Part shown: positions 22,048 through 61,910 of the stretch, in pieces
Numbering within the stretch: position 1 is the first letter of the stretch
How the letters are laid out: each line of letters opens with the position of its first letter
NCBI GenBank assembly: GCA_963666205.1
Contig: OY762654.1
Span: 1,024,001-1,088,000, forward strand
DNA length: 64,000 bases
DNA from: Synergistales bacterium
GTDB lineage: Bacteria > Synergistota > Synergistia > Synergistales > JAFGMB01
Direction: 5' to 3'
The notes under the pieces: model-generated
Told to the model about the DNA's origin: nothing
Seen by the model: the letters and a program-made list of their open reading frames with translations, nothing else
The model's database searches: none
Position numbers and translations under genes: made by a program

Positions 22048-22929
22048 GTCGTTTCGGTGCGCTAAAGCAGCACCCTACGGTTCTTGTCTTCCTGCGTGTT
22101 ACTCTGCGAAACATTTGCGCTTACAGTCCGCCTTAACGTCTTTGTAAGATGGTTTGCGGCGGATCCTCTGCGGTAAACCGATTTTAGATTTTGGATTTTA
22201 GATTTTGGATTAGATCCATTGAGTTCCTCCGTGGTGAAAGGGTTTTAACGGTTCAGCTTTACGGTTCTTAGGTTTAACTCGTGCAAAATAGTATCACCGT
22301 TTTGCGCAGTAGAAAAAAGATTTGAGGGCTTCCTCTGCGCTCTCTGCGCCCTCTGCGGTAAAATAGCTTTTGATTTTGACCTGGGTTCCCTCCGTGGTGA
22401 AAGGGTTTAACGGTTCAGCTTTACGGGTTTTCATGGCACAAAGCTGCGCTTTCGTGCCTCCACAAAACCTTTATCTCAGTAGCATCTGGTCCGAATGTAC
22501 GAATCTTTCATCTTACTCCTGAAGAGTTACCCCAAGGGTTTATGTCTTCCTCTGCGCTCTCTGCGCCCTCTGCGGTAAAATAGCTTTTGACTTTGACCTG
22601 GGTTTCCCTCCGTGTACCTCCGTGCCCTCCGTGGTGAAAAAGTTTGGGGTGGATGTTATAGTTACTGGTTTTATTGTTTCCATGGCACAAATCTCCGATT
22701 TCGTGCCTCCCCAAAACCTTTATCTCAGTAGCATCTGGTCTGAATGGATGTTGACATGGAACTCAACTTTATCTTACCGGCCCGAAGGTCCGCCCGTCCA
22801 CGGTTTGTTTAGATGGGTTTTGGCGGATTTCCTCTGTGCTCTCTGCGCCCTCTGCGGTAAAACAGCTTTTGACTTTGACCTGGTTTCCCTCCGTGGTACT
22901 CCGTGTCCTCCGTGGTGAAAAGGTTTGGG
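22048..22929. repeat. Modular repeat array R3
   Basis: REP, GTCCGCC stems, heptamers, hairpin D 22279, hairpin E 22435 and 22684, several iteron blocks. Confidence 0.9.
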
Positions 22930-24294
22930 TCAGGATCTCCAATAATCACATACCAGGTCTTCCAGCCTTACCAGGTTAATATCCTCTGATGATTCCAACC
23001 CCTTGAAACCTGACCTGGAGAATATATAAAATACCGTTCTGCTGCAATCCCTTCCGACTACTTTCCGGATCTTGTCAGCCTTACCTGCCAGATCCATGAA
23101 AACCCTTGAATTTGCCGGCTCACGAGTCCATTTACATTCACCAAGCACCAGGGTCTCGCCCTTTACAGCCACTATATCAACCTCATCCTCACCATCCCAC
23201 CACCTGCCCATACCTTCAGGGTTTATCCAATCTTTCAGAACCTGCCTGCAGATCTTCTCCCAGGTAAAGGAAGTATGCATAGAAAGAGTGGATGAGATCT
23301 TTTCCTGGACATCAGACCCTCTCTCCCTATAGATAAGTTCCTGATCGTCCAGCAGATACCTGAAATAAAAACGCAGATACTCATCCTCGATGAAGTACAG
23401 GGGGATCTTTTTAGGTCTTTTCAGGGAGAAGGGAAGTTCCTTGCGGATCAGTCCAAGCTCAAGGAGATTCCTCAGGTAAGTTGAAATGTTCTGATGGGGA
23501 ATACCAGTGATCTGTGCTATTTCGGATGCCCTGGTCCTGCCCTTTGCAATTGTCCTCAGGATCGAAAAATATGAAGTTGGATCCTTTTTGAACTCCTCCA
23601 TAACCAGAAAACGGCCCTCTTCCACTAGAAATTCACCAGGGCTCAGCATCGATTCCTTCAGTGCATTATTAAAAGAACCGTGTCCAGACATCTTCTTGAG
23701 ATAAAGAGGAATTCCCCCAACTGCAGAATATGTTTTTACCTGGTCTTCCATGTTCAGGTCAGGTAAAAATTTTCTTGCCTGCAGAAATCCCATAGGATCG
23801 ATACGGTATTGCCCTGTTCTTCTGCCATATATGGGACTGCTCTCTGCCAGGGTGATTCTTTCCATCATGCCGATAAAGGAACCGCAAAGCACCATCATCA
23901 CCGGCAGTTTACTGAATACCTGATCCCACCATCTCTGAAAAAGGGAAAGAAAGGAATCATCCTTGATGGGAATATACTGAAATTCGTCCCATACGATAAC
24001 CAGTTTTTCTCTGGATAATTTGATCATCTTTTCCAGAAGGGAGAACATCTCATCCCATTTAGTGACTTCCAGAGACAAAGGCAGTTCTGCTTTTTCTTTA
24101 AGGGGAATAGAGAACCTGTTGATCAGCTGCTGCGGTTCAGACATATCAGCAGTCAGGAAAAGAGCTCCGGGAAATGTGTTCTCAAGGAGGAAAGTCTTCC
24201 CTACCCTTCTCCTGCCATATATAACGACCAGCTCTGCATTTTCAGACCTGAACTTTTTTTCAAGAAATTCTTTCTCCTGTATCCGATCTATCAT
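22930..24294 (-). CDS. Archaeal-type ATPase (ATPase_2) + wHTH + DUF234 PD-(D/E)XK-like domain
   Basis: YGRRRVGKT, WDEFQY, CGS, PIYGRRT, GGIPLYL, GRWW..EVDIVA..GECKW; ATG at 24294 with GGGGGTG RBS preferred over TTG 24381. Confidence 0.88.
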   Translation of the reverse strand: MIDRIQEKEFLEKKFRSENAELVVIYGRRRVGKTFLLENTFPGALFLTADMSEPQQLINRFSIPLKEKAELPLSLEVTKWDEMFSLLEKMIKLSREKLVIVWDEFQYIPIKDDSFLSLFQRWWDQVFSKLPVMMVLCGSFIGMMERITLAESSPIYGRRTGQYRIDPMGFLQARKFLPDLNMEDQVKTYSAVGGIPLYLKKMSGHGSFNNALKESMLSPGEFLVEEGRFLVMEEFKKDPTSYFSILRTIAKGRTRASEIAQITGIPHQNISTYLRNLLELGLIRKELPFSLKRPKKIPLYFIEDEYLRFYFRYLLDDQELIYRERGSDVQEKISSTLSMHTSFTWEKICRQVLKDWINPEGMGRWWDGEDEVDIVAVKGETLVLGECKWTREPANSRVFMDLAGKADKIRKVVGRDCSRTVFYIFSRSGFKGLESSEDINLVRLEDLVCDYWRS

Positions 24295-24314
24295 ATGCGC
24301 ACCCCCAAAATCAA

Positions 24315-24357
24315 AAAATACAGAAGATATATTCTGCAAATATATCTTCTGTATTTT
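24315..24357. promoter_or_regulatory. Perfect 19-bp inverted repeat (putative operator) upstream of ATPase
   Basis: AAAATACAGAAGATATATT-CTGCA-AATATATCTTCTGTATTTT. Confidence 0.6.
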
Positions 24358-24388
24358 AAGGGCTGCTCTTATAAATTGCAAATAGTCC

Positions 24389-24770
24389 TTTCGGTGCGCT
24401 CTCTGCGGTAAACCAGCTTTTGCCTTAGGTTTTATGTTTTCCTCAGATATTCCTCCGTACCCTCCGCAGTAAAAGTGTCTACTGTTTTCAGGTTTTATGT
24501 TTCCCTCTGTGCCCTCCAGGTCTAATCTTTACCATGGCACAAAGCTGCGCTTTCGTGCCTCCACAAAACCTTAAAGTTAAGATGTAATCTATCTGAACTG
24601 TCAAAAAAGGAATAAATCCTGAATATTATGTCAAAGAAGTCTTGTTTTCCTCATGTTTTACCTCTGCGGTACTCTGCGTGACCCCTGCGCCCTCTGCGGT
24701 AAAACAGGTTTTGACTTTGACCTGGGTTTCCCTCCGTGGTGAAAGGGTTTTAACGGTTCAGCTTTACGGG
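24389..24770. repeat. Modular repeat array R4
   Basis: Iteron blocks, hairpin E 24536-24559, shared A-B linker. Confidence 0.85.
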
Positions 24771-26905: not shown

Positions 26906-26939
26906 CCACTCCCCGAAGAAAAGTCAAACAAAAAACGAA

Positions 26940-27110
26940 CCAGAACAATTTTACCGCAGAGGACGCAGAGAACGCAGAGGAAAGCGTAACCCTGAGTGAA
27001 CCATTTTTCTTTAACCTGCTGCGTATATATTTCCGAGTTCATCCGCTCAGACCTTATCCAACTTAGACTGAGGTTAATGGATGTCACATAATCATAGATT
27101 TGTGCCAGGA
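26940..27110. repeat. Modular repeat array R5
   Basis: TTTTACCGCAGAGGACGCAGAGAACGCAGAGG + ~90-100 bp element + hairpin E (reverse). Confidence 0.85.
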
Positions 27111-27149
27111 GAAACTCTAGCCATAAATTCTGGCTGGTTACTGGATTTA

Positions 27150-27527
27150 CTACAGCCCGTTGGCAAATCGGGTTATACCATCCTTAAGTTTGACTACATT
27201 GAAATTAATAAGCAATCCTAGTTTCTTGCCGCTCAGTTTCAAGTAAGAAAGGATCTGAGCCTTATGTATATCCGTTATTTTTTCAACGGATTTAAGTTCA
27301 ATAATAATCTCGTCCTCTACAACCAGATCCAGACGATAACCCAAGTCTATTTTGACTTCATCATAAATCACAGGAAGAACTTTCTGGGACTCAACTTTAA
27401 AGCCTCTTTTATTTAATTCATAACAAAGACAAGCTTCATATGAACTTTCGAGAAGACCCGGACCTAAAGCAGAATGTACTTTAACAGCGCTATCAATAAT
27501 TTCTTTGCTTATCTCATTTATCTCCAT
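27150..27527 (-). CDS. GxxExxY protein (PD-(D/E)XK nuclease superfamily, PDDEXK_3)
   Basis: LGPGLLESSYE, YRLDLVVEDEIIIELKSV, AQILSYLK, GLLINF; 125 aa. Confidence 0.92.
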   Translation of the reverse strand: MEINEISKEIIDSAVKVHSALGPGLLESSYEACLCYELNKRGFKVESQKVLPVIYDEVKIDLGYRLDLVVEDEIIIELKSVEKITDIHKAQILSYLKLSGKKLGLLINFNVVKLKDGITRFANGL

Positions 27528-27599
27528 AGGTCTGAATACCCCCCAATTCAGTCATGACAAAACCCTAACCATTCTACAACAAAATTGTTTTTGGTTTTG

Positions 27600-28105
27600 C
27601 CTCTAAGTCGTGCAAAACCGAGTCTGGTTTTGCGCAGTAGGAAAAAGATTTGCGGGTTTCCTCTGCGCTCTCTGCGCCCTCTGCGGTAAAACAGGTTTGA
27701 GGGTAGATTTTATAGTTTCCGTTTTTATTGTTTCCATGGCATAAATCTACGATTTCATGCCATACATCAACTTTGAGGTAAAGTAGTATCTAGTCCGAAC
27801 ATTCTGAACCCAGAATTGGGAAAATCCCATATTCCGCAATGTTTTAAGCTTTTCCTCCGCGGTACTCTGCGCTCCCTCTGTGTCCTCTGCGGTAAAACAG
27901 GTTTGAGGGTAGATTTTATAGTTTCCGTTTTTATTGTTTTCATGGCACAAATCTACGATTTCGAGCCTCCCCAAAACCTTTATCTTCGTAGGATATGGTC
28001 TGTCCGGACAAATATCACATGTTATTCATGAACAGTTATACCAAGGTTTTACGCCTTCCTCCGTGGTAAAAGGGTTATAACGGTTCAGCTTCACGGGTTT
28101 TACTC
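27600..28105. repeat. Modular repeat array R6
   Basis: Hairpin D 27608, hairpin E 27738 and 27944, iterons; ~79-bp tandem duplication at ~27679 and ~27884. Confidence 0.9.
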
Positions 28106-28142
28106 TTGAAAAAGGAAACTTCATGTTTCAAAGTAAACCATT

Positions 28143-28724
28143 TTATTTTACTCTCATTACAACTCCGCCATTGCCCCCAACATTTGCTGGATTTTCCGAT
28201 GCTATAAATAAACTCTTCGAAGGATCATCAAGATTCTCGCTCAGGGAACCATCATAGATCCCGCTTTCGGGAGACATCCTTTCCAGCTGTTTTCTGATCG
28301 AATAATCCGCATAGGTATTAGTAACATTGGCTGCAACATAAATATGAACATCTGGAGTGGCATAGGAAGGATCGCTTCCCGGCCCGGAAACATAGATAAA
28401 GTACGGGTTCTTTGAAGCATTATTCCAATCCTTTGGACCCGTTATACTGTGAGGTTCAGGTATACCCCTGTCCAGGTATTGGCTCAGGCTGTTTATGCTA
28501 ATTACACCCCAACCCTGCTCACTCTGGGAAAACCACTGCTGATTATCAGCATAGTACATAACTACTGCAGTCTTGAGAACTTCCAGGTTTGAGACTATCT
28601 TTGTCGCCTCGCTCTTACTGGTCGCGCTTCCGATTGTGATCATAAGAGAACCTGAGAGAATGCCTATAATGATGATTACAATGAGGATCTCTATAAGGGA
28701 AAAACCTCTGCTGCGCTTTTTCAA
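28143..28724 (-). CDS. Prepilin-type N-terminal cleavage/methylation domain protein (pilin/pseudopilin)
   Basis: RSRG|FSLIEILIVIIIIGIL class III signal peptide. Confidence 0.88.
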   Translation of the reverse strand: MKKRSRGFSLIEILIVIIIIGILSGSLMITIGSATSKSEATKIVSNLEVLKTAVVMYYADNQQWFSQSEQGWGVISINSLSQYLDRGIPEPHSITGPKDWNNASKNPYFIYVSGPGSDPSYATPDVHIYVAANVTNTYADYSIRKQLERMSPESGIYDGSLSENLDDPSKSLFIASENPANVGGNGGVVMRVK

Positions 28725-28917
28725 CTCTCAATTACCTCCCTGGCTGATTAGTATGTGGGATCTTGAACACCATTGAATAGTGTACAGACCTGTTTTCTAA
28801 CCACCAGGGCAAAAAAGCCTGTTTTCCAGGGGACAGGAAGACCAATTTCCCAGGGACTTATGGACCATTTGTATTTCTCATTCGCTCAAGTCCCCCATAC
28901 CTGGGTGTATTTAGCCT

Positions 28918-29525
28918 TATCGGTGCGCTGGAGCGCACCCTGCAAAACTTTATCTTACCGGGCCGAAGGTCCGCCCGTCCTCGATTTGTTTAGTGGGTTT
29001 TGGCGGCTTTCCTCCGTGGTAGAAAGGTTTACGGTTCTAAGGTTCCAATCGTGCAAAATAGTATCACCGTTTTGCGCAGCATGTATTATAACAAGTGGTT
29101 ATGACTTTCCTCCGTGCTACTCCGTGACCTCCGTGGTAGATAGGTTTTAGCGTTTGGGCTTTACGGGTTTTCATGGCACAAATCTACGATTTCGTGCCTC
29201 CCCAAAACCTTTATCTTCGTAGGATATGGTCTGTCCGGACAAATATCGGATGTTATTCCTGTTCAGGTATACCAAGGTTTTACGCCTTCCTCCGTGTCCT
29301 CCGTGGTGAAAGGGTTATAACGGTTCAGCTTTATGGGTTTCCATGGCACAAATCTTCGATTTCGTGCCTCTCAAAAACCTCAATCTTAGTAGTATTGGAT
29401 CTTGCAAAACATAACCAAAGATTAGTCGCAGCATATTTATACAAAAGGGGTTAAGCTTTCCTCTGCGCTCTCTGCGCCCTCTGCGGTAAAACAGGTTTTG
29501 ACTCTGATTTTGACTTTGGTTTTGA
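28918..29525. repeat. Modular repeat array R7
   Basis: REP 28922-28943, GTCCGCC stem, hairpin D 29049, hairpin E 29175 and 29345, iterons. Confidence 0.9.
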
Positions 29526-29532
29526 TAAAAAA

Positions 29533-29559
29533 AGAGGATAGCCTTTCGGCTACCCTCTC
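29533..29559 (-). terminator. Intrinsic terminator of Synergist-CTERM gene
   Basis: AGAGGATAGCC-TTTC-GGCTACCCTCT preceded by A-run on + strand. Confidence 0.65.
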
Positions 29560-29579
29560 TCAATTATCTTCTCAGCTTA

Positions 29580-30137
29580 TTACTTCAGCAGCCACACCAG
29601 CGGTAAAGCCAGCAGACCCATCAGAGGGCTTACAGCCCCGGCGTTACAACCGCCGCCACCGCCACCACCGGAAGTCTCTTCTTCTGCATTTACAAGATAG
29701 ACCTGGGAAGTTGAAAAATACAGAGAAGGATCTGTTATTGTGGCAACTCCATTCACGACCTCGATAAAATCATAATAATCAGAATGATTCTGGATCAATA
29801 TACCATCGGGATCAAGACCGGTACCCCTCACATCAATGGTTACTGTTCCAACAGGCGTAGTATCGTAGACTGCTTCCACACCCGCAAGGACGACGATCGT
29901 ATAAGTTCCGCTTACCGGCATATTAATATGATCACTGGTCACGCTGGAACTTAAAATACAAGAGGCACAGGAGTCCGTATCTGGAGAAAATATGATAGTC
30001 CCTGGATCAATGGACGTGTAAATCTCCGTATCGACATGTCCAACATGGCCTATATCATGACCTACCACAGCCATACCTACCGACGCAAAAACAAGAACAA
30101 GTGCTGCAGAAACTGCAAAAAGAACAACTTTTTTCAT
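29580..30137 (-). CDS. Synergist-CTERM sorting-domain surface protein
   Basis: Signal peptide; C-terminus SGGGGGGGCNAGAVSPLMGLLALPLVWLLK. Confidence 0.85.
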   Translation of the reverse strand: MKKVVLFAVSAALVLVFASVGMAVVGHDIGHVGHVDTEIYTSIDPGTIIFSPDTDSCASCILSSSVTSDHINMPVSGTYTIVVLAGVEAVYDTTPVGTVTIDVRGTGLDPDGILIQNHSDYYDFIEVVNGVATITDPSLYFSTSQVYLVNAEEETSGGGGGGGCNAGAVSPLMGLLALPLVWLLK

Positions 30138-30304
30138 GAATATATCCCCCTCCAGAAGAGAAATGATAAAAAATCAGTTATAACGTATACAGAAACGAAC
30201 CAACCCGGATTATAAACCTAACAACTTTATAGAGCAATATTAAAAAGATCTGAATACCGGAAATGTTACATTAGACCTATCCACCACAAAGGAAATATTT
30301 AAAA

Positions 30305-30460
30305 ACATGTTTAACCGCAGAGGACGCAGAGAAAACCGGGAGGAAAGCATAAAAACATCGCTATGTAGATTTTATTAATCTCCTGTTTTATATATACATG
30401 ACCTGATCCTACTAAGATAAAGGTTGATGTATGGCATCAAATCATCGATTTGTGCCAGGA
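30305..30460. repeat. Modular repeat array R8
   Basis: Iteron + 89-bp element + hairpin E; similar to 34059-34200. Confidence 0.8.
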
Positions 30461-30659
30461 AGCAAATATTTACAGTGGGCATCGAAGAAAATAACCTGGT
30501 TTTTTACCTGGAATATTTTAAATTGACTTAATTTTTATGTTCCATCATGTGATACCAGCGGCAGAAAAAGGTTCTCTTTTCTGCCGGCAGTCAACCTTAA
30601 AAAACAAAGAAATATTGTAATAAAACCGTAGAGTCAAAAACATTGCCCAAATTAAGTTT

Positions 30660-31490
30660 CAGTACTTGGGTTCCCTCTGCGCTCTCTGCGCCCTCTGCGG
30701 TTAGCTTAGGGTTAATAGGGGTAAAAGGTTTACGGTTCAGGTTTACGGGACCAATCGTGCAAAATAGTTCCATCATTTTGCGCAGCATAACAAGGAGTGT
30801 TAAGGGCCGAATGTCCGGCCAACCCGGCTTTAAGTTTTTTAGGAAGATCTTTGACGGAGGTTTTTGGCGGGTTTCCTCTGCGGTAAAAGAAAGATACTGA
30901 ATTTGTTTTTGACTTTGGTTTTATTGGTTAAGAGGTTTTCCTCTGTGACCTCTAGTTCGAAAGCACTACCTGGCACAAATCTACGATTTGGTGCCATACA
31001 TCAACCTCAGTCTAAGTAGCATAAGATCTGAGTGGACGTAACATCGGAATAAACACGCAGTATATGGATAAAATGGTTTGACGGGTTTCCTCAGGGTCTA
31101 CCTCTGCGAAACTCTGCGTAACCTCAGCGTCCTCTGCGGTAAAACAGCTTTTGATTTTGACCTGGTTTCCCTCCGTGTCCTCCGTGGTAGATAGGTTTTA
31201 GCGTTTTGGCTTTACGGGTTCCCATGGCACAAATCTCCGATTTTGTGCCTCCGGAAAAACTTGTTCACCAGGTTTTGTAAGTTTCAGGTTCTCGTTCTTA
31301 ATCGTGAAAAATCTAGTCTGATTTTTCGCAGCATGTTTCTTAAATCATTTGGTCTCGTTTTCCTCTGCGCTTCCTCTGCGCTCTCTGCGCCCTCTGCGGT
31401 AAAATAGCTTTTGACTTTGACCTGGTTTCCCCTCCTGCAAAGTTATCAGTCTTGCATACATACGGTTAAAATCAAGGTCTGACCCCATTC
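30660..31490. repeat. Modular repeat array R9
   Basis: Hairpin D 30755 and 31302, hairpin E 30972 and 31226, iterons; ends in a 34-bp element 31456-31489. Confidence 0.9.
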
Positions 31491-34044: not shown

Positions 34045-34455
34045 AACCAAGAGCTGTTTTACCGCAGAGGTCGCAGAGAGCGCAGAGGAAACCGAAAGGC
34101 AGGCATAAAAATTTCGCTGTGTAGGTTTTTATTAATCTCCTGTTTTATACATGCATGACTTGATCCTACTAAGATAAAGGTTGATGTACTTTTGTGCCAT
34201 GGGCATAAAGAAAATCATCAATTCTAAGAGCAAAACATGTAGTTACCTCAGAGGACGCATCGGAAAATTATAAAGAATGCAATGTTGTTTACTCTTTTGA
34301 CCGTTTATTATTCTAGAAGGTTTTGGCGGATTTCATGTAGACAGGAAGTTCTAGGGGGCTAATCGTGAAAAATCTAGTCTGATTTTTCGCAGTAATACAG
34401 ATTTTACAGGTTTAACGGTTTCCTCTGCGCTCTCTGCGACCTCTGCGGTTAGCTA
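34045..34455. repeat. Modular repeat array R10 (internal polarity switch)
   Basis: ACCGCAGAGG iterons at ~34060, then hairpin D' 34363 and CCTCTGCG iterons 34422-34451. Confidence 0.85.
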
Positions 34456-34498
34456 AGGGGTTTAGGTTTCACGGTCGAGAAGGGGTTTTATTCAATTT

Positions 34499-34876
34499 AT
34501 GGAAATTAATGAAATTAGCAAAACAATTATCGACAGTGCTTTCCAAGTTCACAAAGCATTAGGACCAGGTCTCCTCGAAAGTGCATATGAAGCCTGCCTC
34601 TGCTACGAACTCAAGAAAAGAGGATTTACAGTAGAATCCCAGAAAGTTCTCCCGATAATTTACGATGGACAACAAATTGATGTTGGTTATCGCCTGGATC
34701 TTCTTGTACAAGATCAGGTCATAGTAGAACTCAAATCTGTTGAACATATAAATGAGGTACATAAAGCACAGATACTCTCGTATCTCAAACTTGGTAATAA
34801 GAAACTCGGACTACTTATCAATTTCAACGTAGCCAAAATCAAGGACGGGATAACCCGTATCGTCAACGGTTTGTAG
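34499..34876 (+). CDS. GxxExxY protein (PD-(D/E)XK nuclease superfamily), second copy
   Basis: LGPGLLESAYE, YRLDLLVQDQVIVELKSV; about 98/125 identical to 27150-27527 by manual count. Confidence 0.92.
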   Translation: MEINEISKTIIDSAFQVHKALGPGLLESAYEACLCYELKKRGFTVESQKVLPIIYDGQQIDVGYRLDLLVQDQVIVELKSVEHINEVHKAQILSYLKLGNKKLGLLINFNVAKIKDGITRIVNGL

Positions 34877-35024: not shown

Positions 35025-35185
35025 TAGGTTTTCTCTGCGCTCTCTGCGGTTAGACAGGATTTAGACTTTAGGGTTGCCGGTTTTATTCGTGAAAAATCTA
35101 GTCTGATTTTTCGCAGTAATACAGATTTTACAGGTTTAACGGTTCCCTCTGCGCTCTCTGCGACCTCTGCGGTTAAACAGTATTT
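35025..35185. repeat. Modular repeat array R11
   Basis: 35087-35175 is a direct repeat of 34363-34451. Confidence 0.9.
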
Positions 35186-36442: not shown

Positions 36443-36547
36443 AGTCTGAGAGTAAAAAGTTTTGAATATCATTTCCAGAAGAATCCAAGGATAAGAGCCA
36501 TATTTCACTCGATTCAACGAATACTATCGAGAAAGGAACGTGTACTC

Positions 36548-52268: not shown

Positions 52269-53270
52269 AATGGGGTCAGACCTTGATTTTAACCGTATGT
52301 ATTCAGTATTATGTAAATATTTTAGCCCTGCGAAAACCATGAAACCATAAAATCCAACCATCACCCTTTCTCACCACGGAGGTCACGGAGGAAGTTCGGA
52401 GGAAACACTGGAGCAAGACCAAAAGACATATTTTACCGCAGGGACTCTCCGAGTCCGCGCAGAGGCCGCAGAGAGGAGCACGCAGAGGGGATCGTTATCC
52501 TTTAACCCAGGACATCTGAGCAATCTGGAGCCATTGCTCATCTCGCAATAATAAATTTCCAGGCAAAATATAGATATTTCCCCTGTTCATTGTTTTATTG
52601 CCTTGAAAAATATACTTCATATTTTTCATTATTGTCCTAGGCTTTCAAATGCAAGGAGATGAAAAAAAATTTAGAAACAGGAGGCTTTGGCAATCTTTCC
52701 CGTGAATTTATCCATTACCTGGAAAATGATTTCATCATTTTCCTAATGTCCCGGGTTTTCAAGAAAACCTATTTACAAAGGAAAACTACAGGGACCATTA
52801 CACCCAAACCATAAATCCTGGGTGGTTAATGAACCCATGACATCTTCCAAGGGCATTTCGATGCGTTGAAGTCCGCCGCAAATCCGTCAAAGATCTTCCA
52901 AAAACTTAAAGCAGGATGGCCGGACATTCTGCCCTTTCATATAAAACCGTCAGGCCCGAGTAGTGGCGGACTTTCAGCGCGGGTCTAGAAGATCAAGAAA
53001 TAGGCCACTTTGTCGGCTGCGAAAAATAAGACTAGATTTTTCACGAATAAAACACCGGGAAAAGTTTAAGATGCGCTGAAGCACATCCTATGGATTGCTG
53101 TCGCGTAGGAAGGCACAAACCTTGAGGTAACTGTTCAGGAGTAACATCCTATTTTCGTCCGGACAGACTATCGGTGCGCTGAAGCACACCCTATGACCAA
53201 GGTTTTGGGGAATAAACATAAAAATATTATTGAGCGTTTTGGTGCGCTGAAGCGGCACCCTATGGAGGGA
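52269..53270. repeat. Modular repeat array R12 (partly degenerate)
   Basis: 34-bp element 52269-52302, iterons 52370-52490, GTCCGCC stem, hairpin D' 53017, three REP-like palindromes 53070-53263. Confidence 0.8.
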
Positions 53271-53288
53271 GAACTACGAGAAAAAAAG

Positions 53289-53316
53289 AACCTGCTCCCA
53301 TCGGGGGGAGCAGGTT
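53289..53316 (-). terminator. Intrinsic terminator of etf-lctD operon
   Basis: AACCTGCTCCC-N6-GGGAGCAGGTT with A-run on + strand. Confidence 0.7.
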
Positions 53317-53328
53317 AAAGTCTGGAGT

Positions 53329-54753
53329 TCAGCAGGAACAGCTGATGTCGAAGATCTTGCCGGGGTTCATGATGTTGTTGGGATCCAGAGCCTGCTTGAT
53401 CTTCCGCATCATTTCAACCTCTGCTTCGCTTGTTACTATGTTCAGGTATTTTTTACGTTTACATCCTATGCCATGTTCTCCAGTTATCTTTCCTCCGAGC
53501 TTTTTACAGAGGGTGTAGATGTCACGCAATGCCTGTTCTTCCGTTTCAAACCACTCTTCCATGGTGGAGTCGGGGTTTTTCAGCAGGGTCGGATGAAGAT
53601 TTCCGTCGCCTGCATGTCCAAATATAGGTATCAGGATATCGTGTTTTTCAGCGATCTTTTCCATTCCCTCTACAAATTCTGTTATGGCCGCAATGGGAAC
53701 TACCGTGTCCTCGTCTGTCATTACAGGGCTAAATACCCGGAAGGCTTCATCGATGTTCCTTCTTACGCTCCAGATCCTCTCCCTCGTGGTGTTGTTATCT
53801 GCAACATAGACTTCTATGGCATCGTTCTGGAAGCAGAGCTCACCGATAAGATCGGCATCAGCATCCACCTGCTCTTCCCGGTTGCCGTCAACTTCGATGA
53901 GGAGCATGGCTCCGGCATTATGATAGGGAAGGCTTTCATTCAGGTATTCACATGTGGTTTTCACTGAAAGATGGTCCATGTACTCTATGGATGTGGGTGT
54001 TATTCCGCATTCCATCATTATTTTGGGAACTACGCTTATGGCAGACCGGGTGTCCTTGAAGAGTACGAGAAGGTCCACCATATACCTGGGCATGGGGGAT
54101 AGCTTGAGTATTATTTTGGTCACTATTCCCAGCGTTCCCTCTGAGCCGACTATGAGCTGTTTGAGGTTATAACCGGTAACATCCTTTACCAGTTTTCCAC
54201 CCAGTTGAAGGATCTCTCCCGTTGGCGTGACTATTTCTAGGCCTATGACATATCTGCTTGTGACTCCGTACTTGATGGCTTTGCCGCCTCCTGCATCTTC
54301 GGCGACATTACCGCCGATGAAACATGACTGCAGGCTCATGGGGTAACCTGCATAAAACAATCCGCTTCCTTCTAGGGCAACATTGATCTCACTGGTAACT
54401 AAGCCTGGTTCCACCACAATTAGCATATTGTTGTAATCGATCTCCAGGATGCTGTTCATTCTTTCAAAGGAGATGACAATTCCTCCAAAGGAGGGTATGG
54501 ATCCGCCGGAAAGACCCGTCCCCCCTCCGCGGGGGGTTATGGGTATTAGCTCACGATTGGCAAGCTTTACAATTTCTGCGATCTCTTCAGCCTTTCGTGG
54601 AATTACTACGACTTCAGGCATGTGGGCATATTGAGGAGGGGTTTCGTCATGAGAATAGGTCGACATTTTCTCTTCATCGGTGATGACATATTTTTTCCCG
54701 ACTATGTCAGAAAGCTGCGACAGTATTGCAGGGGTCACCTGGTTGTATTTCAT
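53329..54753 (-). CDS. FAD-linked alpha-hydroxy-acid dehydrogenase (LctD/GlcD-like)
   Basis: [44 protein letters not shown]. Confidence 0.85.
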
Positions 54754-55775
54754 CTGGATCGGACCTCCTCAAGTTTTTCGTTCAGGGATGGGAGTACTTC
54801 AAAAAGGTCTCCCACGATCCCGAAATCGGCAACTTTGAAGATCTGTGCTTCAGGATCGGAATTTATGGCAACGATGATATCTGCGGTCTTCATACCGGCC
54901 AGATGCTGGATGGCACCCGATATGCCCACTGCAAGGTATAGTTTTGGCGTCACGGTTTTACCGCTTAACCCGACCTGATGGGGATAGCTTATCCATCCCC
55001 TGTCAACTGCATCCCTGCTTCCGCCAACTACCCCATCTAGCCTGGCTGCCAGGTCCCGAATCAGCGCGAAGTTCTCTTTCTTCTTCAATCCCTTCCCGCC
55101 TGATACGACCACGTCGGCTGACTGTATGTCGATATCCTGGTCATCATTCTTCCTGAAACCGATCCTCCGAACCCGTTTATCTTCAAGGTCCTCTTTGAAT
55201 TTCACCCTGATGATCCTGCCTGCATTGTTTTCATCAAGGGGTGCGGGCCTGGTCGAACGGGGTCTGACCGTTGCCATCTGAGGCCGGTGTTCAGGGGTCT
55301 TTATGGTGGCGAGGATATTGCCGCCGATGGCAGGCCTGGTCTGCAGGAGGTTACCGGTGTCGCCTTCGATCTCCAGACCGGTGCAGTCTGCCGTAAGGCC
55401 TGTATTGGCCCTTATGGAGACATGGGGCATAAGGGTCCTTCCCGTTGTTGTTGCTGCAGCGATAAGTATCTCCGGCTTGTATTGTTTTATCAGGTCCAGC
55501 AGTACATTGCTGTGAGTTTCAACTGTAAAATTCTCGAGTACAGGGGCTTCAACCACATAGACCTTGTCTGCGCCTCTTTTTATAAGCTGCTCCAGATCCT
55601 CATCTGACATGCTGCCGGTAAGGAGCACTGAACATAACTGTGTTTTCAGCTGGTCTGCCAGCTTTCTTCCTCTTGAAAGCAGTTCAAAGGATACCTGGCG
55701 GAGTTTTCCTTCTCCGGCTTCGGCAAGGGTCCATACTTCTCTATGGGACATTGAAAGATCCTCCTTCTGATACAT
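54750..55775 (-). CDS. etfA: Electron transfer flavoprotein alpha subunit
   Basis: [33 protein letters not shown]. Confidence 0.92.
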
Positions 55776-56573
55776 CTAGATCAGTTCCTTCATGACCAGG
55801 AAATCCACAAGTTCATGTACGGCTCTGTCCAGGCTTTCTTCATCCTTTGCTGCAAAGATCTTTCCACCCCTTGTAACCTTTGGGGTTTCGATCTTCACCA
55901 CCCGGGTGGGCGATCCGTTCAGGCCGATCCGATTTGTATCAAGGCCTACAGAATCGACTGACCATCGGGGCACTTCTGTGAGTCTGGCCTTCTGTTTTCC
56001 TCTAAGGGTGGGCAGACGGGGATAGCTTATCTCCTTTACCACTGTAAGAAGGGCGGGGAGTTCCATCTGGAGTTTTTCATAACCACCTTCGACAAGACGT
56101 TCTACCACCATGAAGCCATTATCGATCTCCTCGACAGAGCTCACATATGTCGCAAGGGATATGTCCAGAAAGGATGCTATTCCAGGGCCGACCTGCCCTG
56201 TGTCTCCGTCGGTAGCCCTTTCACCACATAGGACAAGATCATAGGTTCCGATCTTTCTGATGGCCTCCGAGAGGGCATAAGAGGTAGCCCACGTATCTGA
56301 CCCGGCAAATTCTTTCCCGGTAAGAACGATACCCCTGTCGCAACCCATGGCCATTGCTTCCTTAACTGCTTTTTCAGCTGCAGGGGGGCCCATTGATATT
56401 ACAGTTACAAGGCCTCCGAATTTCTCCTTCAGCTGAATGCCCGTTTCTATGGCGTAAAGATCAAGGGGGTTGATTATGCTTTCAACACCATCTCTTATCA
56501 TGGTTCCTGTTTTTTCATCCATTTTTACGTTGCTGGTCTCCGGTACCTGTTTGACCGGGATAATAATGTTCAA
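55776..56573 (-). CDS. etfB: Electron transfer flavoprotein beta subunit
   Basis: KQVPET, INPLDLYA, DGDTGQVGP, GLNGSPTRV. Confidence 0.92.
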   Translation of the reverse strand: MNIIIPVKQVPETSNVKMDEKTGTMIRDGVESIINPLDLYAIETGIQLKEKFGGLVTVISMGPPAAEKAVKEAMAMGCDRGIVLTGKEFAGSDTWATSYALSEAIRKIGTYDLVLCGERATDGDTGQVGPGIASFLDISLATYVSSVEEIDNGFMVVERLVEGGYEKLQMELPALLTVVKEISYPRLPTLRGKQKARLTEVPRWSVDSVGLDTNRIGLNGSPTRVVKIETPKVTRGGKIFAAKDEESLDRAVHELVDFLVMKELI

Positions 56574-56664
56574 ACTCCATTCACCTCCAGAACTCTGATG
56601 GAAAGGGTCTCGATGGTTCTGTTAATAAAGAGATTATACCGGACGGGGGGAAGATATGAGGAAA

Positions 56665-57000
56665 ACAGGTCAAAAACAAAATCAAAGTCAAGATATGTTT
56701 TACCGCAGAGGACGCAGAGTAACGCAGAGGAAATCAAACATGAGGGAACCCATGCTGCGAAAAATCAGACTCGATTTTTCACGAATAACCCCCGAATCAT
56801 AGCCCATAAAACTGTTTACCACGGAGGGACACGGAGGAAGGCATAAAGAATGGTGTGCTGCGCAAAATGATGGACCTATTTTGCACGATTAGAACCGTAA
56901 ACCTTGTAACCCTGTCTAACCGCAGAGGGCGCAGAGGAAAAGAAAATCGCACATTAACAATAGAATGATGCGCTGAAGCACATCCTATGGAAAACTAACA
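56665..57000. repeat. Modular repeat array R13
   Basis: Iterons, hairpin D' 56755, hairpin D 56858, REP-like 56967-56988. Confidence 0.88.
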
Positions 57001-57085
57001 TCAAGATAATATAGAGTTATAGGTGCTCTGAAACCCACACCAACAGGAGACGCTACCTGAAACCCGAAATCCTGACAGGAATTTT

Positions 57086-58012
57086 TCAGAAATGAAGGAT
57101 ATTACAGGCCCGCTTAAGACCATAGAGGATGGCTGCTCCGGGATGGCGGTAACAGTAGCGGAGAGCCTGGTAAAACCATGTGGTCCGGCCAACATCTTTC
57201 CAGGGGCCCTTTTGACGGTATTGAAGGTATTCTTCGGCAAAGGTGATCTTTTTCGTACTGAATAGCCAGGGTTTTCTGTTGGTAGTGAAATGAACTATGA
57301 CCGGGTCGGGCATGGGAAGATCTTTCTGGCCTGTTTCCCGGGATAAGTCGTCAAAAATATGGGTTATGAAGTTCCACCTGTTTTCGACATATAAAACATC
57401 ATTTTTAAGGATATTGTTCAAAATATCCTGGTCGTGAAAGGGCGTATCAGCAAGAAAGGTCCTATCCAGGTTAAAGGCTTTATTCTCATAGTCCTTTTCA
57501 CGCCACTGTTTAAGGTCAAAAAGAATAACCCCGGAGTTGAAATACTTGTCACAACCGGGCAAACTCTTGTATTTTTTACAAAGAAAAGGACTATCTTCGA
57601 CAGCTGCAATGGTTTTACCCTGGAGATCGAGGTCCCAGAGATCTTTCAGACTTCCCCGAACTATAGTGTCACAGTCAAGATAAAGGGCCCGGTCGATCTC
57701 TGGAAGGAGTGAGCCTATTTTGAGGCGGAAGTATGTAGGAATGCTAACATGGGTCGAAGAGGGATCCAGTGAAGATATGTGTAAGAATCCGTCTATAGAG
57801 GTTATGGAAATGTGGGTGAAGTCGAAATCCCTTATGCTCCTGAGGCTCAGGATCCTTTGCTTTTCCAGTTCGGGGAGGGATTCGGAAAGTACAAAAAAGT
57901 GTATCCTGTCATCACGGGCAGTATTTGTGAGAATTGAGGTCATGGTGACCCCCATATGGGGTATGAATGTCTGGTCTGTTGAAAAAACTATATTCATACT
58001 TGGACACACCAC
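57086..58012 (-). CDS. GT8 glycosyltransferase
   Basis: TYFRL, LYLDCD, YFNSGV, DQDILN, VHFT..KPW. Confidence 0.9.
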   Translation of the reverse strand: MVCPSMNIVFSTDQTFIPHMGVTMTSILTNTARDDRIHFFVLSESLPELEKQRILSLRSIRDFDFTHISITSIDGFLHISSLDPSSTHVSIPTYFRLKIGSLLPEIDRALYLDCDTIVRGSLKDLWDLDLQGKTIAAVEDSPFLCKKYKSLPGCDKYFNSGVILFDLKQWREKDYENKAFNLDRTFLADTPFHDQDILNNILKNDVLYVENRWNFITHIFDDLSRETGQKDLPMPDPVIVHFTTNRKPWLFSTKKITFAEEYLQYRQKGPWKDVGRTTWFYQALRYCYRHPGAAILYGLKRACNILHF

Positions 58013-58094
58013 CTGTTTCCGGGAGTTCGGAGATTCGACTGCTGAGCATTTAACCTTGATCAGTTTAGCATAGACTTTAACGAGGGCAGGGCAA

Positions 58095-58555
58095 AATCAG
58101 GATCAAGACATATTTTACCGCAGAGGAAACCGAAAGACTGAGAACCGTAAACCAAAAAACCTGTTTCACCACGGAGGACACGGAGGAGGATCTGAGGAAA
58201 ACCAGATCAAAATCAAAACACGTTTTACCGCAGAGGGCGCAGAGAGCGCAAAGGAAAGCATGAACCCTTGGTTAGAACAGACTGTTTCTGAATTCTGAAT
58301 GAGGTATGTTCGGATGATATGCTACTTTACCGATAGGTTGTTGGATGTCACGAAATCGGAGATTTGTGCCATGGAAACCCGTAAAGCCCAAACGCTAAAA
58401 CCCTTTCACCACGGAGGACACGGAGGTACACGGAGGAGACCGTTAAACCAATAAATCCTTGTGTTACTGCGCAAAATGATGGACCTATTTTGCACGATTA
58501 GAACCGTAAACCGTTTAACCCTGTCTAACTGCAGAAGGCGTAGGGGACAAAAACC
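58095..58555. repeat. Modular repeat array R14
   Basis: Iterons, 92-bp element + hairpin E 58347, hairpin D 58467. Confidence 0.9.
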
Positions 58556-58605
58556 TGGAGGTAAGGGAACCGGTTGAAATCTGCTGGCCTGCTTCGCCGA
58601 ACTCC

Positions 58606-59613
58606 TTAGACTTTGTAATAATCCCGGTACCAGGAAACGAACCTTTCAAGGCCAACTTCTATGGGGGTGTCTGGCCTATAGCCCACTTCTGCTGCGAGAT
58701 CATCGATATCTGCAAAGGTTTCCACCACGTCTCCGGGCTGCATGGGAAGAAATTCCTTTTTTGCTTCCCTGCCTGTACACTTTTCAAGAGTTGTTATGAA
58801 ATCCATAAGCTTTACGGGTTTATTATTACCTATGTTATACACCCTGTAGGGAGCATAGCTTTTTCCTGGTTCAGGAGAATTGCCGCTCCAGTCGGGATCG
58901 GGCTGGGGAGGCCTGTTCATTGTCCTTACAACACCTTCGACGATATCATCGATCCAGGTGAAGTCCCTTTTCATTTCTCCGTTGTTGAAAACCTTTATGG
59001 GCCGGTCTTCAAGGATGGCTTTGGTGAAGAGGAAATAGGCCATGTCGGGTCTGCCCCAGGGTCCATATACGGTAAAGAACCGGAGTCCGGTGCAGGGAAG
59101 TCCATATAGGTGGCTGTAGGAATGGGCCATTAGTTCGTTTGCCTTCTTGGTGGCAGCGTAAAGACTTACAGGGTGGTCTACGTTGTCTGATACCCTAAAG
59201 GGTTTGCTGGTATTTGCTCCATATACTGAACTGGAGGAAGCATAAACCATGTGCTCTACTCCATTATGGCGGCATGCTTCAAGGATGTTGAGGAACCCTG
59301 TCAGATTGCTCTGGCCGTAGGCCTGGGGGTTGGTTATGGAATACCTTACTCCGGCCTGGGCGGCAAGGTGGATAACCCTCCGGGGTCTGTCATTACTGAA
59401 CAGGCTGCTGACTGCCATGCTGTCTGAAATATCCATTCTGTGGAAGGTGAACTCCGGATAGTTTTTAAGGACTCCGAGGCGATCTTCCTTGAGGGTCACG
59501 TCGTAGTAATCGTTGAGATTGTCGATGGCCGTGATCTTGTGTCCTTCCTGCAGGAGTTTCAGAGAAACATGGTATCCGATAAAACCGGCGGCACCGGTGA
59601 CAAGTATTTGCAT
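58606..59613 (-). CDS. UDP-glucuronate 4-epimerase
   Basis: TGAAGFIG, HLAAQAGVRYS, YAATKK, FFTVYGPWGRPDMA. Confidence 0.88.
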   Translation of the reverse strand: MQILVTGAAGFIGYHVSLKLLQEGHKITAIDNLNDYYDVTLKEDRLGVLKNYPEFTFHRMDISDSMAVSSLFSNDRPRRVIHLAAQAGVRYSITNPQAYGQSNLTGFLNILEACRHNGVEHMVYASSSSVYGANTSKPFRVSDNVDHPVSLYAATKKANELMAHSYSHLYGLPCTGLRFFTVYGPWGRPDMAYFLFTKAILEDRPIKVFNNGEMKRDFTWIDDIVEGVVRTMNRPPQPDPDWSGNSPEPGKSYAPYRVYNIGNNKPVKLMDFITTLEKCTGREAKKEFLPMQPGDVVETFADIDDLAAEVGYRPDTPIEVGLERFVSWYRDYYKV

Positions 59614-59754
59614 GGGTTCCTCCTGGAAATTAAAGCATTATTGTTTATTGTAATGCATTTTGAAGAGGAAAATGAAGATTTTACCTTATTGAAACGGTTT
59701 TAATAATATAATATTACAGTTAAGGTAGTAATGGAAAACCGAAGAAAATTGAGT

Positions 59755-59776
59755 GGTGCGCTGAAGCGCACCCTGC
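59755..59776 (-). repeat. Isolated REP-like palindrome
   Basis: GCAG-GGTGCGCT-TC-AGCGCACC on - strand. Confidence 0.7.
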
Positions 59777-59829
59777 TCTAAAAGTTGTAGACCATATTAT
59801 GAAATCTTAATTTTTCTGGGGGGATAGAT

Positions 59830-61161
59830 TTGAACAGTATGAAAATAGGTGTAATAGGGACAGGTTATGTGGGGCTGGTTTCAGGACTTTGCCTGGCAGA
59901 CTTCGGCTTCACCGTTACCTGCGGTGATATAGATGTTTCAAAGATCGAGAGGCTCAACAGTGGAGAGATTCCCATATACGAGCCAGGGCTCAAGTCCGTT
60001 TACGATCGGGTAACCGAGCTCGGGAGAGTTACCTTTACCACTAATATCGATACCCTGGTAAACGACAGCGATGTGATCTTCATCTGCGTCGGAACTCCTC
60101 CTGAAGAAGACGGTTCCGCTGACCTCAAGTACGTCTGGCAGGTAGCAGAGACCATAGGAAAGAACCTGGAAACTTACAAGGTCATAGTAGATAAATCTAC
60201 CGTTCCAGTTGGTACGGCCCGAAAGGTTTATGACATCATCAAAGGTCAACTGGCTGAAAGAAATATGGATTCTGCCTTCGATGTGGTTTCAAATCCGGAA
60301 TTTCTCAGGGAAGGGAAAGCCGTCCATGATTTCACCCATCCGGACAGGATAGTTATAGGTTCCGATTCAGAGAGGGCCTGTGAGATCATGAAAAAGGTTT
60401 ACAGTCCCTTGAAGCTCAATGAGGTTCCCTTCGTGCTGACAAATCCCGAGACGGCGGAATTGATAAAATATGCCTCCAACGCTTTTCTGGCCACAAAGAT
60501 CGGTTTTATAAACGAAATAGCAAACCTGTGCGAGGCTGTTGGTGCAGATGTCCATAAGGTGGCAAAATCCATGGGTATGGACGGACGGATAAGCAGCAAG
60601 TTCCTCCACCCTGGCCCCGGTTACGGCGGCAGCTGTTTTCCCAAGGACACCATGGCCCTGGTGAATATGGCCAGAGAAAATGGTGTGGACTCCCTGGTGG
60701 TTTCTGCCGTGGTGGACTCCAATATCAGGCAAAAGGTCAGAATGGCAGAGAAGATAAAAAAGGCCTTTGGCGGAGATGTAGCAGGAAAGCAGATAGCGAT
60801 CCTGGGTTTGAGTTTCAAGCCGGAGACGGATGACGTTAGGGAATCCCCTGCCCTGGTAATAATCCCCGAGCTTCTGCAGAGGGGTGCTTTGGTACACGCC
60901 TACGATCCCCAGGGGATCGGTGAAACAAAGAAGGCTCTTACTGAGAGTGATGCAGATATTCTGTACACTGCTGATGAATATGACGCGTGCAAGGGTGCGG
61001 ATGCTGTTGTTATACTCACCGACTGGAACCAGTTCCGCAGGCTCGATCTTCAGAGGCTTAAAGACCTTATGAAAGGGAACAGGTTCTTCGACTTCAGGAA
61101 CATCTACGACCGGGAAGAGGTTGAAGGTATGGGGTTCTATTATGAAGGGGTGGGAAGGTAG
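59830..61161 (+). CDS. ugd: UDP-glucose 6-dehydrogenase
   Basis: GTGYVG, KSTVPVG, NPEFLREG, GYGGSCFPKD, FKPETDD. Confidence 0.92.
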   Translation: MNSMKIGVIGTGYVGLVSGLCLADFGFTVTCGDIDVSKIERLNSGEIPIYEPGLKSVYDRVTELGRVTFTTNIDTLVNDSDVIFICVGTPPEEDGSADLKYVWQVAETIGKNLETYKVIVDKSTVPVGTARKVYDIIKGQLAERNMDSAFDVVSNPEFLREGKAVHDFTHPDRIVIGSDSERACEIMKKVYSPLKLNEVPFVLTNPETAELIKYASNAFLATKIGFINEIANLCEAVGADVHKVAKSMGMDGRISSKFLHPGPGYGGSCFPKDTMALVNMARENGVDSLVVSAVVDSNIRQKVRMAEKIKKAFGGDVAGKQIAILGLSFKPETDDVRESPALVIIPELLQRGALVHAYDPQGIGETKKALTESDADILYTADEYDACKGADAVVILTDWNQFRRLDLQRLKDLMKGNRFFDFRNIYDREEVEGMGFYYEGVGR

Positions 61162-61910
61162 TTCGATTTTAGATTGGGGATTTTGGATTAAAAGATAGAA
61201 AACAACACCCAGAGCTTAAAAACTGTTTTACCGCAGAGAACGCAGAGGAAATCCTCAAATCTTTTTTTACTGCACAAAATGATGCACCAGTTTTGCACGA
61301 TTAGAACCGTAAACCTTTTAACCCTGTCTAACCGCAGAGGGCGCAGAGAGCGCAGAGGGAAGCATGAACCCTTGGTTAGAACAGACTGTTTCTGAATTCT
61401 GAATGAGGTATGTTCGGATGATATGCTACTTTACCGATAGGTTGTTGGATGTCACGAAATCGGAGATTTGTGCCAGGAGTCTAACTTCTAACCTGGAGGA
61501 CACAGAGGAAAACATAAAACCTAAGTCAAAATCTATTTTACTGCAGAGGATCCGCCGTAAACCATCGTATAAAACCATTAGACCCAAGTAGTGGCGGACT
61601 TTCAGCGCAGAGGAAAGCATGAACCCTTGGATTTGAAAATCTACTGCGCAAAACGGTGATACTATTTTGCTCGAGTTAAACCTAAGAACCGTAAAGCTGA
61701 ACTGTTTAAACCTTTCACCACGGAGGGCACGGAGTGCCACGGAGGTAAACCAGGTCAAAATCAAAAGCTGTTTTACCGCAGAGGGCGCAGAGGAAGGCGT
61801 AAGCCCTTGGGGTAACTGTTCAGGGATAACATCCCATATACATCCGGACAGATCATATCCTACTATGATAAAGGTTTTGGGGAGGCACAAAATCGGAGAT
61901 TTGTGACATG
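61162..61910. repeat. Modular repeat array R15
   Basis: Hairpin D 61270 and 61644, hairpin E 61451 and 61884, GTCCGCC stem, iterons; segments shared with R1, R2, R3, R7 and R14. Confidence 0.9.

Follow-up and report, generated by a model that had tools for sequence, protein, structure and literature searches.

The stretch of DNA analysed here (64,000 nucleotides, positions 1,024,001 to 1,088,000 of contig OY762654.1, assembly GCA_963666205.1; hereafter the window) belongs to a Synergistales bacterium whose genome consists of one 2.95-Mb contig. The window is an exopolysaccharide locus that encodes YjbH, a Wza-like exporter, Wzz, a priming transferase, glycosyltransferases, a flippase, and sugar-nucleotide enzymes. 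On its minus strand lies a gene of the GxxExxY family (gene 1, 27150..27527), whose 125-aa product is a predicted RecB/Cas4-type PD-(D/E)XK nuclease and which stands between two inverted arrays of short tandem repeats. We refer to the gene together with these arrays as cassette 1, which extends from 26949 to 27691 (743 bp) and holds the 378-nt open reading frame (ORF) between its arms. The array on the 3' side of the gene (26949..26983, plus strand) reads TTTTACC(GCAGAGGAC)(GCAGAGAAC)(GCAGAGGAA)A, that is, TTTTACC followed by three 9-nt units of the form GCAGAGnnC, and its inverted partner lies on the 5' side (27657..27691, minus strand). Each array is 35 nt long and ends in GAAA, the ACC ends point outward, and the two arms are identical at 33 of 35 positions. 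The initial annotation had described two iteron strings inverted around gene 1, and they were found at exactly the positions it gave. The string CGCAGAGRNCGCAGAG, searched with at most two mismatches, has 39 matches in the window against 0.09 expected from shuffles.

Between arms and gene lie two internal spacers, both assigned to the minus strand. The 5' spacer (27528..27656) contains a hairpin, hairpin D (CGTGCAAAACC...GGTTTTGCGC, ~27605-27632), which folds better than its shuffles (z -2.4), and a module of array plus hairpin D also occurs without a gene at 7992, 22333, and 61233. The 3' spacer (26984..27149), which resembles 30400-30460, carries a degenerate copy of a TGGCAC...GTGCC hairpin module (~27083-27108) that folds no better than shuffles (z -0.43). 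Of the hairpins that had been claimed for each side of the gene, hairpin D therefore stood and the other did not. A scan of cassette 1 for promoters and terminators gave no more matches than shuffled sequence. The term iteron was abandoned, as it implies a replication origin, for which there is no evidence, and a Rep gene was not found among the 47 window ORFs scanned. An origin of plasmid or phage type was rejected on the same ground and because the window contains 32 arrays and this chromosomal locus is remote from the extremes of GC skew.

The gene 1 product matches the NCBIfam model TIGR04256 with 153.4 bits (cut-off 35) over model positions 1-115 of 116 and the Pfam model PF13366 (PDDEXK_3) with 148.9 bits (cut-off 22). 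The function of GxxExxY is given as unknown in the only survey found to mention the family (PMC3424549). In an alignment of 11 family members, D67, E77, K79, Q91, and Y95 are invariant and E27 is nearly so, and the gene 1 product has all of them (E27, D67, E77-x-K79, and Q91-xxx-Y95). We take these E, D, ExK, and QxxxY residues to be the motifs of RecB/Cas4-type PD-(D/E)XK nucleases. The AlphaFold model of the protein has a predicted local distance difference test score (pLDDT) of 93.8, and its best Foldseek matches, all weak, are Cas4 SSO0001 (E 1.3e-3), lambda exonuclease, and Hjc; a sequence search of solved structures found nothing below E 0.4. The PADLOC Cas4 models gave weak partial matches over residues 55-102 (E 8e-4 or weaker), with no significant PADLOC system match and no match in PHROGs. 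The conserved motifs, the confident fold model, and the weak matches to Cas4 and exonucleases suggest a nuclease-like protein, which looks like an active minimal nuclease as far as motifs and a modelled structure can predict. Cas4 proper was rejected, as the protein has only two cysteines, both in helix 2, versus the four-cysteine Fe-S module, and no cas genes were found among the same 47 ORFs.

The search recovered 21,947 representatives at the 50% identity level with E <=1e-3 and 7,654 with E <=1e-10, so GxxExxY is a large family. In database entries of the family that show 10-20 extra N-terminal residues, these are translated arrays; such peptide-like extensions are mis-called starts. Some library proteins of ~265-295 aa (P0001-P0005, P0008, and others) match the query in two stretches, either because they contain two GxxExxY domains in tandem or because two neighbouring genes were read as one.

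The flanks of other GxxExxY loci had been named as the place where the proposed geometry could fail. The sample, drawn from many phyla, comprised the best 80 of 589 loci, as ranked by how closely they match an alignment that contains the query and relatives. With a generic unit defined as C-R-Y-R-R-A-K at 9-nt spacing, an array was found within 300 nt of the gene in 42 of the 80 loci, and array density was 1.81 per kb near the gene versus 0.10 per kb far from it. A flanking ungapped inverted repeat with a score of at least 16 was present at 42 of 77 genes and at none of 142 controls, which were pseudo-genes shifted by 1.1 kb; with loci of the bacterium's own phylum included, the count was 50 of 88. 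When 7-mers repeated at least three times across both flanks in the inverted sense were counted, 87 of 101 genes and 12 of 163 controls had one. Inverted arrays with ACC outward are the rule across phyla, and the geometry did not fail in this test. Most commonly, an array precedes the gene and an inverted one follows it, in many cases at 5-50 nt from the ORF, and the distance from the upstream array to the start codon is often just 0-20 nt. The ends consist of two to four tandem units of 8-10 nt, the usual unit being 9 nt long with the core C-R-C-A-R-A-G, and a T-rich sequence plus ACC lies outermost. The period is mostly 9 nt and also 8 and 10 nt, so that the arrays are neither helically phased nor coding; a reading as codon repeats was rejected for this reason.

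The cassettes lie within operons. Co-orientation with the cassette gene holds for 188 of 242 neighbouring ORFs and, in 47 of 73 loci, for the two immediate neighbours alike. Insertion sites include sufD|sufS, gatA|gatB (in three phyla), pyrH|frr, cbbL|cbbQ, mraY|murD, thiG|thiH, sdhA|sdhB, gltB|gltD, hsdR|hsdM, and polysaccharide clusters. The sufD|sufS junction is filled in two genomes (G268 and G295), where the cassette of ~455 nt runs from the sufD stop codon to 4 nt before sufS, whereas six relatives (G329, G282, G316, G324, G279, and G313) have just 0-12 nt between the two genes. Two further genomes (G288 and G315) carry unrelated small ORFs at this junction, one ribbon-helix-helix-like and one a small membrane protein, and junctions of this kind may be landing sites in general. 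Three genomes marked as unpublished underlie none of our conclusions. Carriage by phages was rejected: the viral contigs held three distant loci, and no PHROG matched.

The repeat unit differs from gene to gene. Genome G272 carries eight paralogs with eight different units, among them CGCAAAG, CGCAGAG, CACGAAT, CACTGAC, CACCGAAA, and CACGGAT, and in each case the upstream and downstream arrays are matched. Mapping the unit type on the protein tree required 43 changes, whereas 200 shuffles required 58.8 on average and never fewer than 53. The comparison of protein tree and repeat variants that the initial annotation had called for thus gave moderate clustering, which does not discriminate between the hypotheses.

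Arrays without a gene are numerous, and within a genome they use the unit of the resident gene; they stand alone or form hairpin-like pairs 12-150 nt apart. In genome G271, three genes contrast with 44 three-unit arrays built of the resident unit, and many of these arrays form inverted pairs ~75-170 nt apart; a reversed control pattern had no match in any of five genomes. In metagenomes, the first 80 loci returned for one unit type, chosen by the array alone, had a gene within 1.5 kb in just two cases. An inverted partner array lay within 150 nt in 31 of these 80, and many pairs are plain long hairpins with loops of 12-60 nt. As other cargo between array pairs, these loci yielded only one small ribbon-helix-helix-like ORF, and no four-helix-bundle gene was present among the 65 ORFs scanned. 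The proposal that gene-less arrays are derivatives of the cassette agrees with their excess over genes and their resident unit type; the part of it that implies dispersal at present did not hold here, where the arrays are confined to one locus.

These features bear on the main rival explanation, an intervening sequence (IVS) acting at the RNA level, in which the two arms would pair in the operon transcript, RNase III would excise the cassette RNA and leave the host cistrons usable, and the nuclease ORF would be cargo or have an unrelated role. The size and layout of the cassette are like those of the Coxiella IVS (PMC4990558), the co-orientation in operons places both arms on one transcript, and many gene-less pairs are the plain long hairpins just described. 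Four-helix-bundle genes, which make up the IVS protein family, also have the same architecture outside rRNA (see below). A stem, however, has no need of tandem units within each arm, and the mismatches between arms show no bias towards G:U pairs (32 wobble-compatible versus 24 incompatible transitions). For these two reasons, recognition by a protein is favoured over an RNA stem, as judged from the arm sequences. In addition, most gene-less arrays in the window are in direct orientation and cannot pair, arrays in the right half of the locus run antisense to the genes around them, and the metatranscriptome contigs (X11) yielded no usable transcript ends. These counterpoints speak against the RNA-level explanation, and we regard it as unlikely.

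Among this genome and 40 relatives, only two of the 41 carry the gene, this one and its congener G001; of 268 genomes of the phylum, 15 have it. In G001, cassette 1 lies at the same place and is 98.0% identical over 815 nt. Similarity is lower in the locus's 15 remaining colinear blocks, 14 of which are at 76-94%, the exception being one ATPase gene at 97.9%. Metagenome contigs, which are short, were compared as long pieces by counting mismatches, and contig joints, mostly repeat-induced, were left out; cassette 1 differs at one position in 555 nt in strain X4 and at one in 586 nt in strain X7, where flanking genes are 91-97% identical. The conserved ATPase gene (20866-22044, AAA_14/DUF4143) lies beside the first repeat mosaic, has three differences in 550 nt in X4, and is, like cassette 1, much more conserved than its neighbours. 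A second GxxExxY gene of G001 lies elsewhere and is flanked by arrays of the unit GCAAAG. At the corresponding site (contig 2,457,700-2,459,000), this genome has a RAYT-like ORF with the translated motif HYIHYNPVKHGL, named from reading that motif and not from a family scan, together with repetitive extragenic palindromic (REP) sequences GATGCGCTGAAGCACATC and one leftover GCAAAG unit. This site was therefore rejected as a clean empty site, since the RAYT/REP element and the residual unit occupy it. REP copies also occur within the window, for example near 56950 and 59700. Two intergenic comparisons of this genome with G001 gave alignments too poor to define insertion borders.

The conserved neighbour and the position of the upstream array could also be read as signs of a stand-alone defence or toxin-like nuclease, in which case the upstream array would be its operator and the downstream copy incidental. 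The short distance of 0-20 nt between many upstream arrays and the start codon would suit an operator, the PADLOC Cas4 models match weakly (E 8e-4), and the neighbouring AAA_14/DUF4143 gene, a variable one, is also unusually conserved (97.9%). On the other side, the cassette holds no partner gene, the inverted array downstream is no less regular than its upstream partner, gene-less arrays far outnumber genes, and neither a significant PADLOC system match nor a PHROG match was obtained. A defence or addiction gene is the least probable of the explanations that we considered and, in our view, highly improbable.

The genome contains just two GxxExxY genes, both in the window. Gene 2 (34499..34876, plus strand) matches TIGR04256 with 152.8 bits, and its product is 78% identical to that of gene 1, a value the initial annotation had estimated correctly by manual count. 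The nearest repeats are two copies of a 92-nt hairpin-plus-array module, both on the minus strand and 98% identical: one upstream of the gene (34360..34451, array 34423-34447) and a second (35084..35175, array 35147-35171), which forms the outer right arm and adjoins a variable core of low GC content. The outer left arm is a gene-less module of the 3'-end type on the plus strand (34050..34190, array 34063-34087 plus flank), resembling 26942-26989 and 30303-30431. The paralog is thus bounded by direct repeats, as had been claimed, and also by an outer inverted pair, 34063-34087 (plus) and 35147-35171 (minus). Gene 2 is absent at the corresponding site in G001, and its region is barely covered by contigs of strain X4, which is a hint of absence only.

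In this genome, the arrays are concentrated in the exopolysaccharide locus. Of the 24 exact arrays (at least two GCAGAG units), 22 fall within the 100-kb bin that contains the window, and in G001, 11 of 13 lie in the exopolysaccharide locus. With a looser definition of the unit, there are 32 arrays in the window and 27 elsewhere in the genome, the latter being mostly poor matches at about chance level (~22 expected by rough arithmetic). With 22 of the 24 confined to a single locus, genome-wide transposition is not under way in this genome, and the pattern looks like local accumulation and recombination instead. Together with the cassettes, about 30 gene-less arrays make up this concentration in the locus. 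All arrays of both species lie in gaps between colinear blocks, and their counts differ gap by gap.

The arrays are part of intergenic mosaics, which mix GCAGAG arrays, CACGGAG arrays, TTTTRGA and TTTGAC repeats, and two hairpin modules and which mark the edges of segments that vary from strain to strain. One gene-less mosaic (22100..22930, minus strand) contains three CGCAGAG arrays, CACGGAG arrays, the TTTTRGA heptamer with TTTGAC repeats, and TGGCAC hairpins, all in a single orientation. Beside cassette 1, gene-less mosaics interleaved with two small genes extend over 27692..31450 (minus strand), with arrays at 27876, 29120, 29290, 29461, 30316 (plus), 30675, 31171, and 31374. Beyond the low-GC core, eleven arrays lie on the plus strand in 52375..61792 (52375, 52458, 56704, 56921, 58170, 58229, 58410, 61232, 61333, 61719, and 61777). 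The core itself spans 36-52 kb, with 33-42% GC versus 44.5% for the genome, and is wholly replaced in G001; at the nucleotide level, its block 36355-53107 (glycosyltransferase, flippase, and related genes) does not resemble the 15 kb that G001 has there, and it includes a 120-aa rve integrase fragment (45526-45888). Arrays to the left of the core are almost all on the minus strand and those to the right are all on the plus strand. The initial annotation had placed the flip of array polarity at gene 1, which holds locally; globally, the strand changes across the low-GC core. Replication direction was rejected as the cause of the flip because the window lies within one replichore, the extremes of GC skew being near 0.06 and 1.70 Mb.

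Several other features of the mosaics may be recorded here. A hairpin module, TGGCACAAATC-TAC-GATTTCGTGCC, whose 3' flank is conserved, is present nine times in the mosaics at 22418-31262. A sigma-54 promoter was considered for the TGGCAC hairpin module and rejected because its -12 element fits poorly, as judged by eye. A reading of '...CTGCGGTAAAA' as a JUMPstart/ops element was also rejected: the resemblance is only loose, and no NusG/RfaH-like gene is present among the 47 ORFs scanned. Rfam at gathering thresholds found no family and no rRNA in the whole window. An ORF of 185 aa (29580-30137) has a signal-peptide-like start and, at its C-terminus, a glycine run, a hydrophobic tail, and basic residues that may be a sorting signal; it has no Pfam match. 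In the segment 22084-24757, an ATPase_2/DUF234 gene (22930-24381) lies between two mosaics; G001 has 581 nt in place of this segment.

The concentration of arrays raises the question of a domesticated function, in which the arrays, with or without the nuclease, would serve this genus as recombination handles for swapping segments of the exopolysaccharide locus between strains or as shared regulatory sites of the locus. The counts given above for the two species fit such a role, and so does the placement of all arrays in non-homologous gaps between blocks conserved with G001; intergenic repeats, however, by their nature fall in gaps that cannot be aligned. The replaced low-GC core is bounded by arrays of opposite polarity, and the mosaic-flanked segments 22084-24757, 28013-29014, and 34025-35026 are absent from G001 or X4; for X4, whose contigs show low cover at 28013-29014 and 34025-35026 and no clean bridging joint, this is a hint only. 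Against a role in the locus, the same cassettes occur elsewhere in housekeeping operons unrelated to polysaccharides, in other genomes the arrays are dispersed over many contigs, and the scan of 47 window ORFs revealed neither a regulator nor a NusG-like gene. We consider a domesticated function improbable.

A second type of cargo was found between arrays of the same kind. Genes for four-helix-bundle proteins (TIGR02436) in four genomes of other phyla (G268, G270, G271, and G272) are flanked by inverted arrays of tandem 7-8-nt units, with a unit of its own for each gene. Inverted repeats with a score of at least 15 were present in 11 of 16 such loci, and most of the others have arrays that can be recognised by eye. 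The only four-helix-bundle gene of this genome (contig ~1,513,900-1,514,680) has inverted TTTTRGA arrays on both sides, and five of the genome's 10 TTTTRGA arrays lie in the window (7853, 8017, 8464, 20469, and 22182). Since ends of this type are part of the mosaics, the mosaics are concatenated ends of several cassette types.

According to these results, we think it likely that cassette 1 is a member of a widespread, IVS-like selfish family with tandem-array ends and that the gene-less arrays are its derivatives. How such a cassette spreads is less certain. The reading that we prefer, with little more than even confidence, is a selfish nuclease cassette whose arrays are recognised by its own protein and which spreads through breaks and recombinational repair. 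In this scheme, the arrays would be the functional ends of the cassette, each unit being recognised by the cassette-encoded protein. The nuclease would break DNA at or near arrays, and recombinational repair would then copy or move the cassette in a homing-like manner, while homologous recombination via conserved flanking genes could transfer it from strain to strain. The gene-less arrays would be decayed or non-autonomous derivatives. We prefer spread driven by the nuclease as the inferred mechanism for four reasons: the arms consist of repeated units, the ends are matched yet paralog-specific, no catalytic residue has been lost, and conservation is higher in the cassette than in its flanks.

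Several observations weigh against this preferred mechanism. No target-site duplication was seen in the three insertions inspected (sufD|sufS and two gene-less G271 copies), and the ORF belongs to no known transposase family, its matches being TIGR04256 and PF13366. The confinement of arrays to one locus in this genome and in G001 is unlike an active transposon. The clustering of unit types on the protein tree could be explained by shared descent alone, and the high conservation of cassette 1 could reflect recent co-acquisition. Because the non-nuclease four-helix-bundle genes share the same architecture, the ends may function without any nuclease, and the ORF may be cargo. The 80 gene loci, moreover, are ranked by similarity and are not a random sample of the family. 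The initial annotation had proposed a minimal autonomous element of nuclease plus terminal arrays. The element itself is supported by consistent ends, by filled and empty sites, and by a cassette identity of 98-99.8% versus 85-97% for the flanks; its mobilisation by the nuclease was not borne out, given the non-nuclease genes with the same architecture and the lack of duplications in the three cases.

The result gives the GxxExxY/PF13366 family a testable context, with defined ends, natural empty sites, and paralog-specific units. It explains spurious ORFs and short 'hypothetical' N-terminal extensions as translated arrays. As each protein variant has one unit type, the family is a candidate for sequence-programmable recognition. 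For the exopolysaccharide locus, ~4-5 kb of repetitive intergenic mosaic is explained, and the joints at which species and strains differ are marked; if the reading is true, the ends accumulated in polysaccharide loci would be joints for the exchange of gene blocks between strains.

The GxxExxY cassette is seemingly undescribed. No description of the arrays or the cassette was found in the full-text literature; subscription journals and family notes were outside this search, and an earlier description is possible. The cassette shares features with several known systems. It resembles the cassettes of integrons, which are small, promoter-poor genes separated by structured inverted-repeat sites (attC) of 60-140 nt and variable sequence; the mosaic arrays in one orientation, like the direct repeats that surround gene 2, are reminiscent of such an array of cassettes. 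In contrast to attC, the sites here are tandem units and usually lie on both sides of the gene. The Pfam scan of the 47 window ORFs, which included no search aimed at attC, found no integron integrase but only the 120-aa rve fragment (45526-45888). Miniature inverted-repeat transposable elements (MITEs), such as Correia/NEMIS and ERIC, are small, gene-less, intergenic elements with terminal inverted repeats that are co-transcribed with their neighbours; they derive from DDE-type insertion sequences and make target duplications. The arrays differ from MITEs in that no duplication was seen in the three insertions and in that the candidate autonomous partner is a 125-aa nuclease.

The REP/RAYT system (REPINs) resembles the cassette in having a gene flanked by inverted short repeats, many gene-less intergenic pairs, and a repeat population for each gene. 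The cassette protein, however, is RecB/Cas4-like (PF13366) and not a Y1 (IS200-like) transposase, and its repeats are arrays of tandem units, not single palindromes, and are confined to one locus in this genome. Homing endonuclease genes are likewise small nuclease genes between conserved genes, present or absent in relatives and more conserved than their flanks; the phage seg/mob genes and the PD-(D/E)XK enzyme I-Ssp6803I are free-standing examples. To our knowledge, known homing endonuclease genes have neither flanking inverted arrays nor gene-less derivatives, and their targets are unique sites in empty alleles.

The closest comparison is with the IVS of 23S rRNA in Coxiella, Leptospira, and Salmonella. 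As described for Coxiella, the IVS is a selfish element of 428-444 nt with a 28-bp terminal stem and one small ORF, which is excised by RNase III and whose mode of spread is unknown (PMC4990558). The cassettes share with the IVS a minimal form of ~430-450 nt, terminal inverted repeats of ~25-35 nt, and one small ORF, and, as described for the IVS, a sporadic distribution, signs of horizontal transfer, a selfish character, and an unknown mechanism of mobility (PMC4990558). At 743 bp, cassette 1 falls within the range of ~0.4-0.75 kb for an element with terminal inverted repeats and one small ORF, and its minimal relatives measure ~450 bp. The cassette differs from the IVS in cargo, which is a PD-(D/E)XK nuclease and not an S23p protein, in the arms, which are tandem 9-nt units, and in location, which is between protein-coding genes and not in helix 45 or 25 of 23S rRNA. 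The IVS-protein family TIGR02436, as described above, also has tandem-array ends outside rRNA, and the architecture links the GxxExxY family to the rRNA intervening sequences, for which neither origin nor mobility has been explained. It is conceivable, though we hold this wider view to be doubtful, that the GxxExxY and four-helix-bundle cassettes are two cargo classes of one widespread, undescribed mobile type that settles in operon spacers of many phyla and has array ends read by its own protein, in which the nuclease version would spread via array-directed breaks, the ends would act as exchange joints of polysaccharide loci, and the 23S rRNA IVS would be the case that landed in rRNA.

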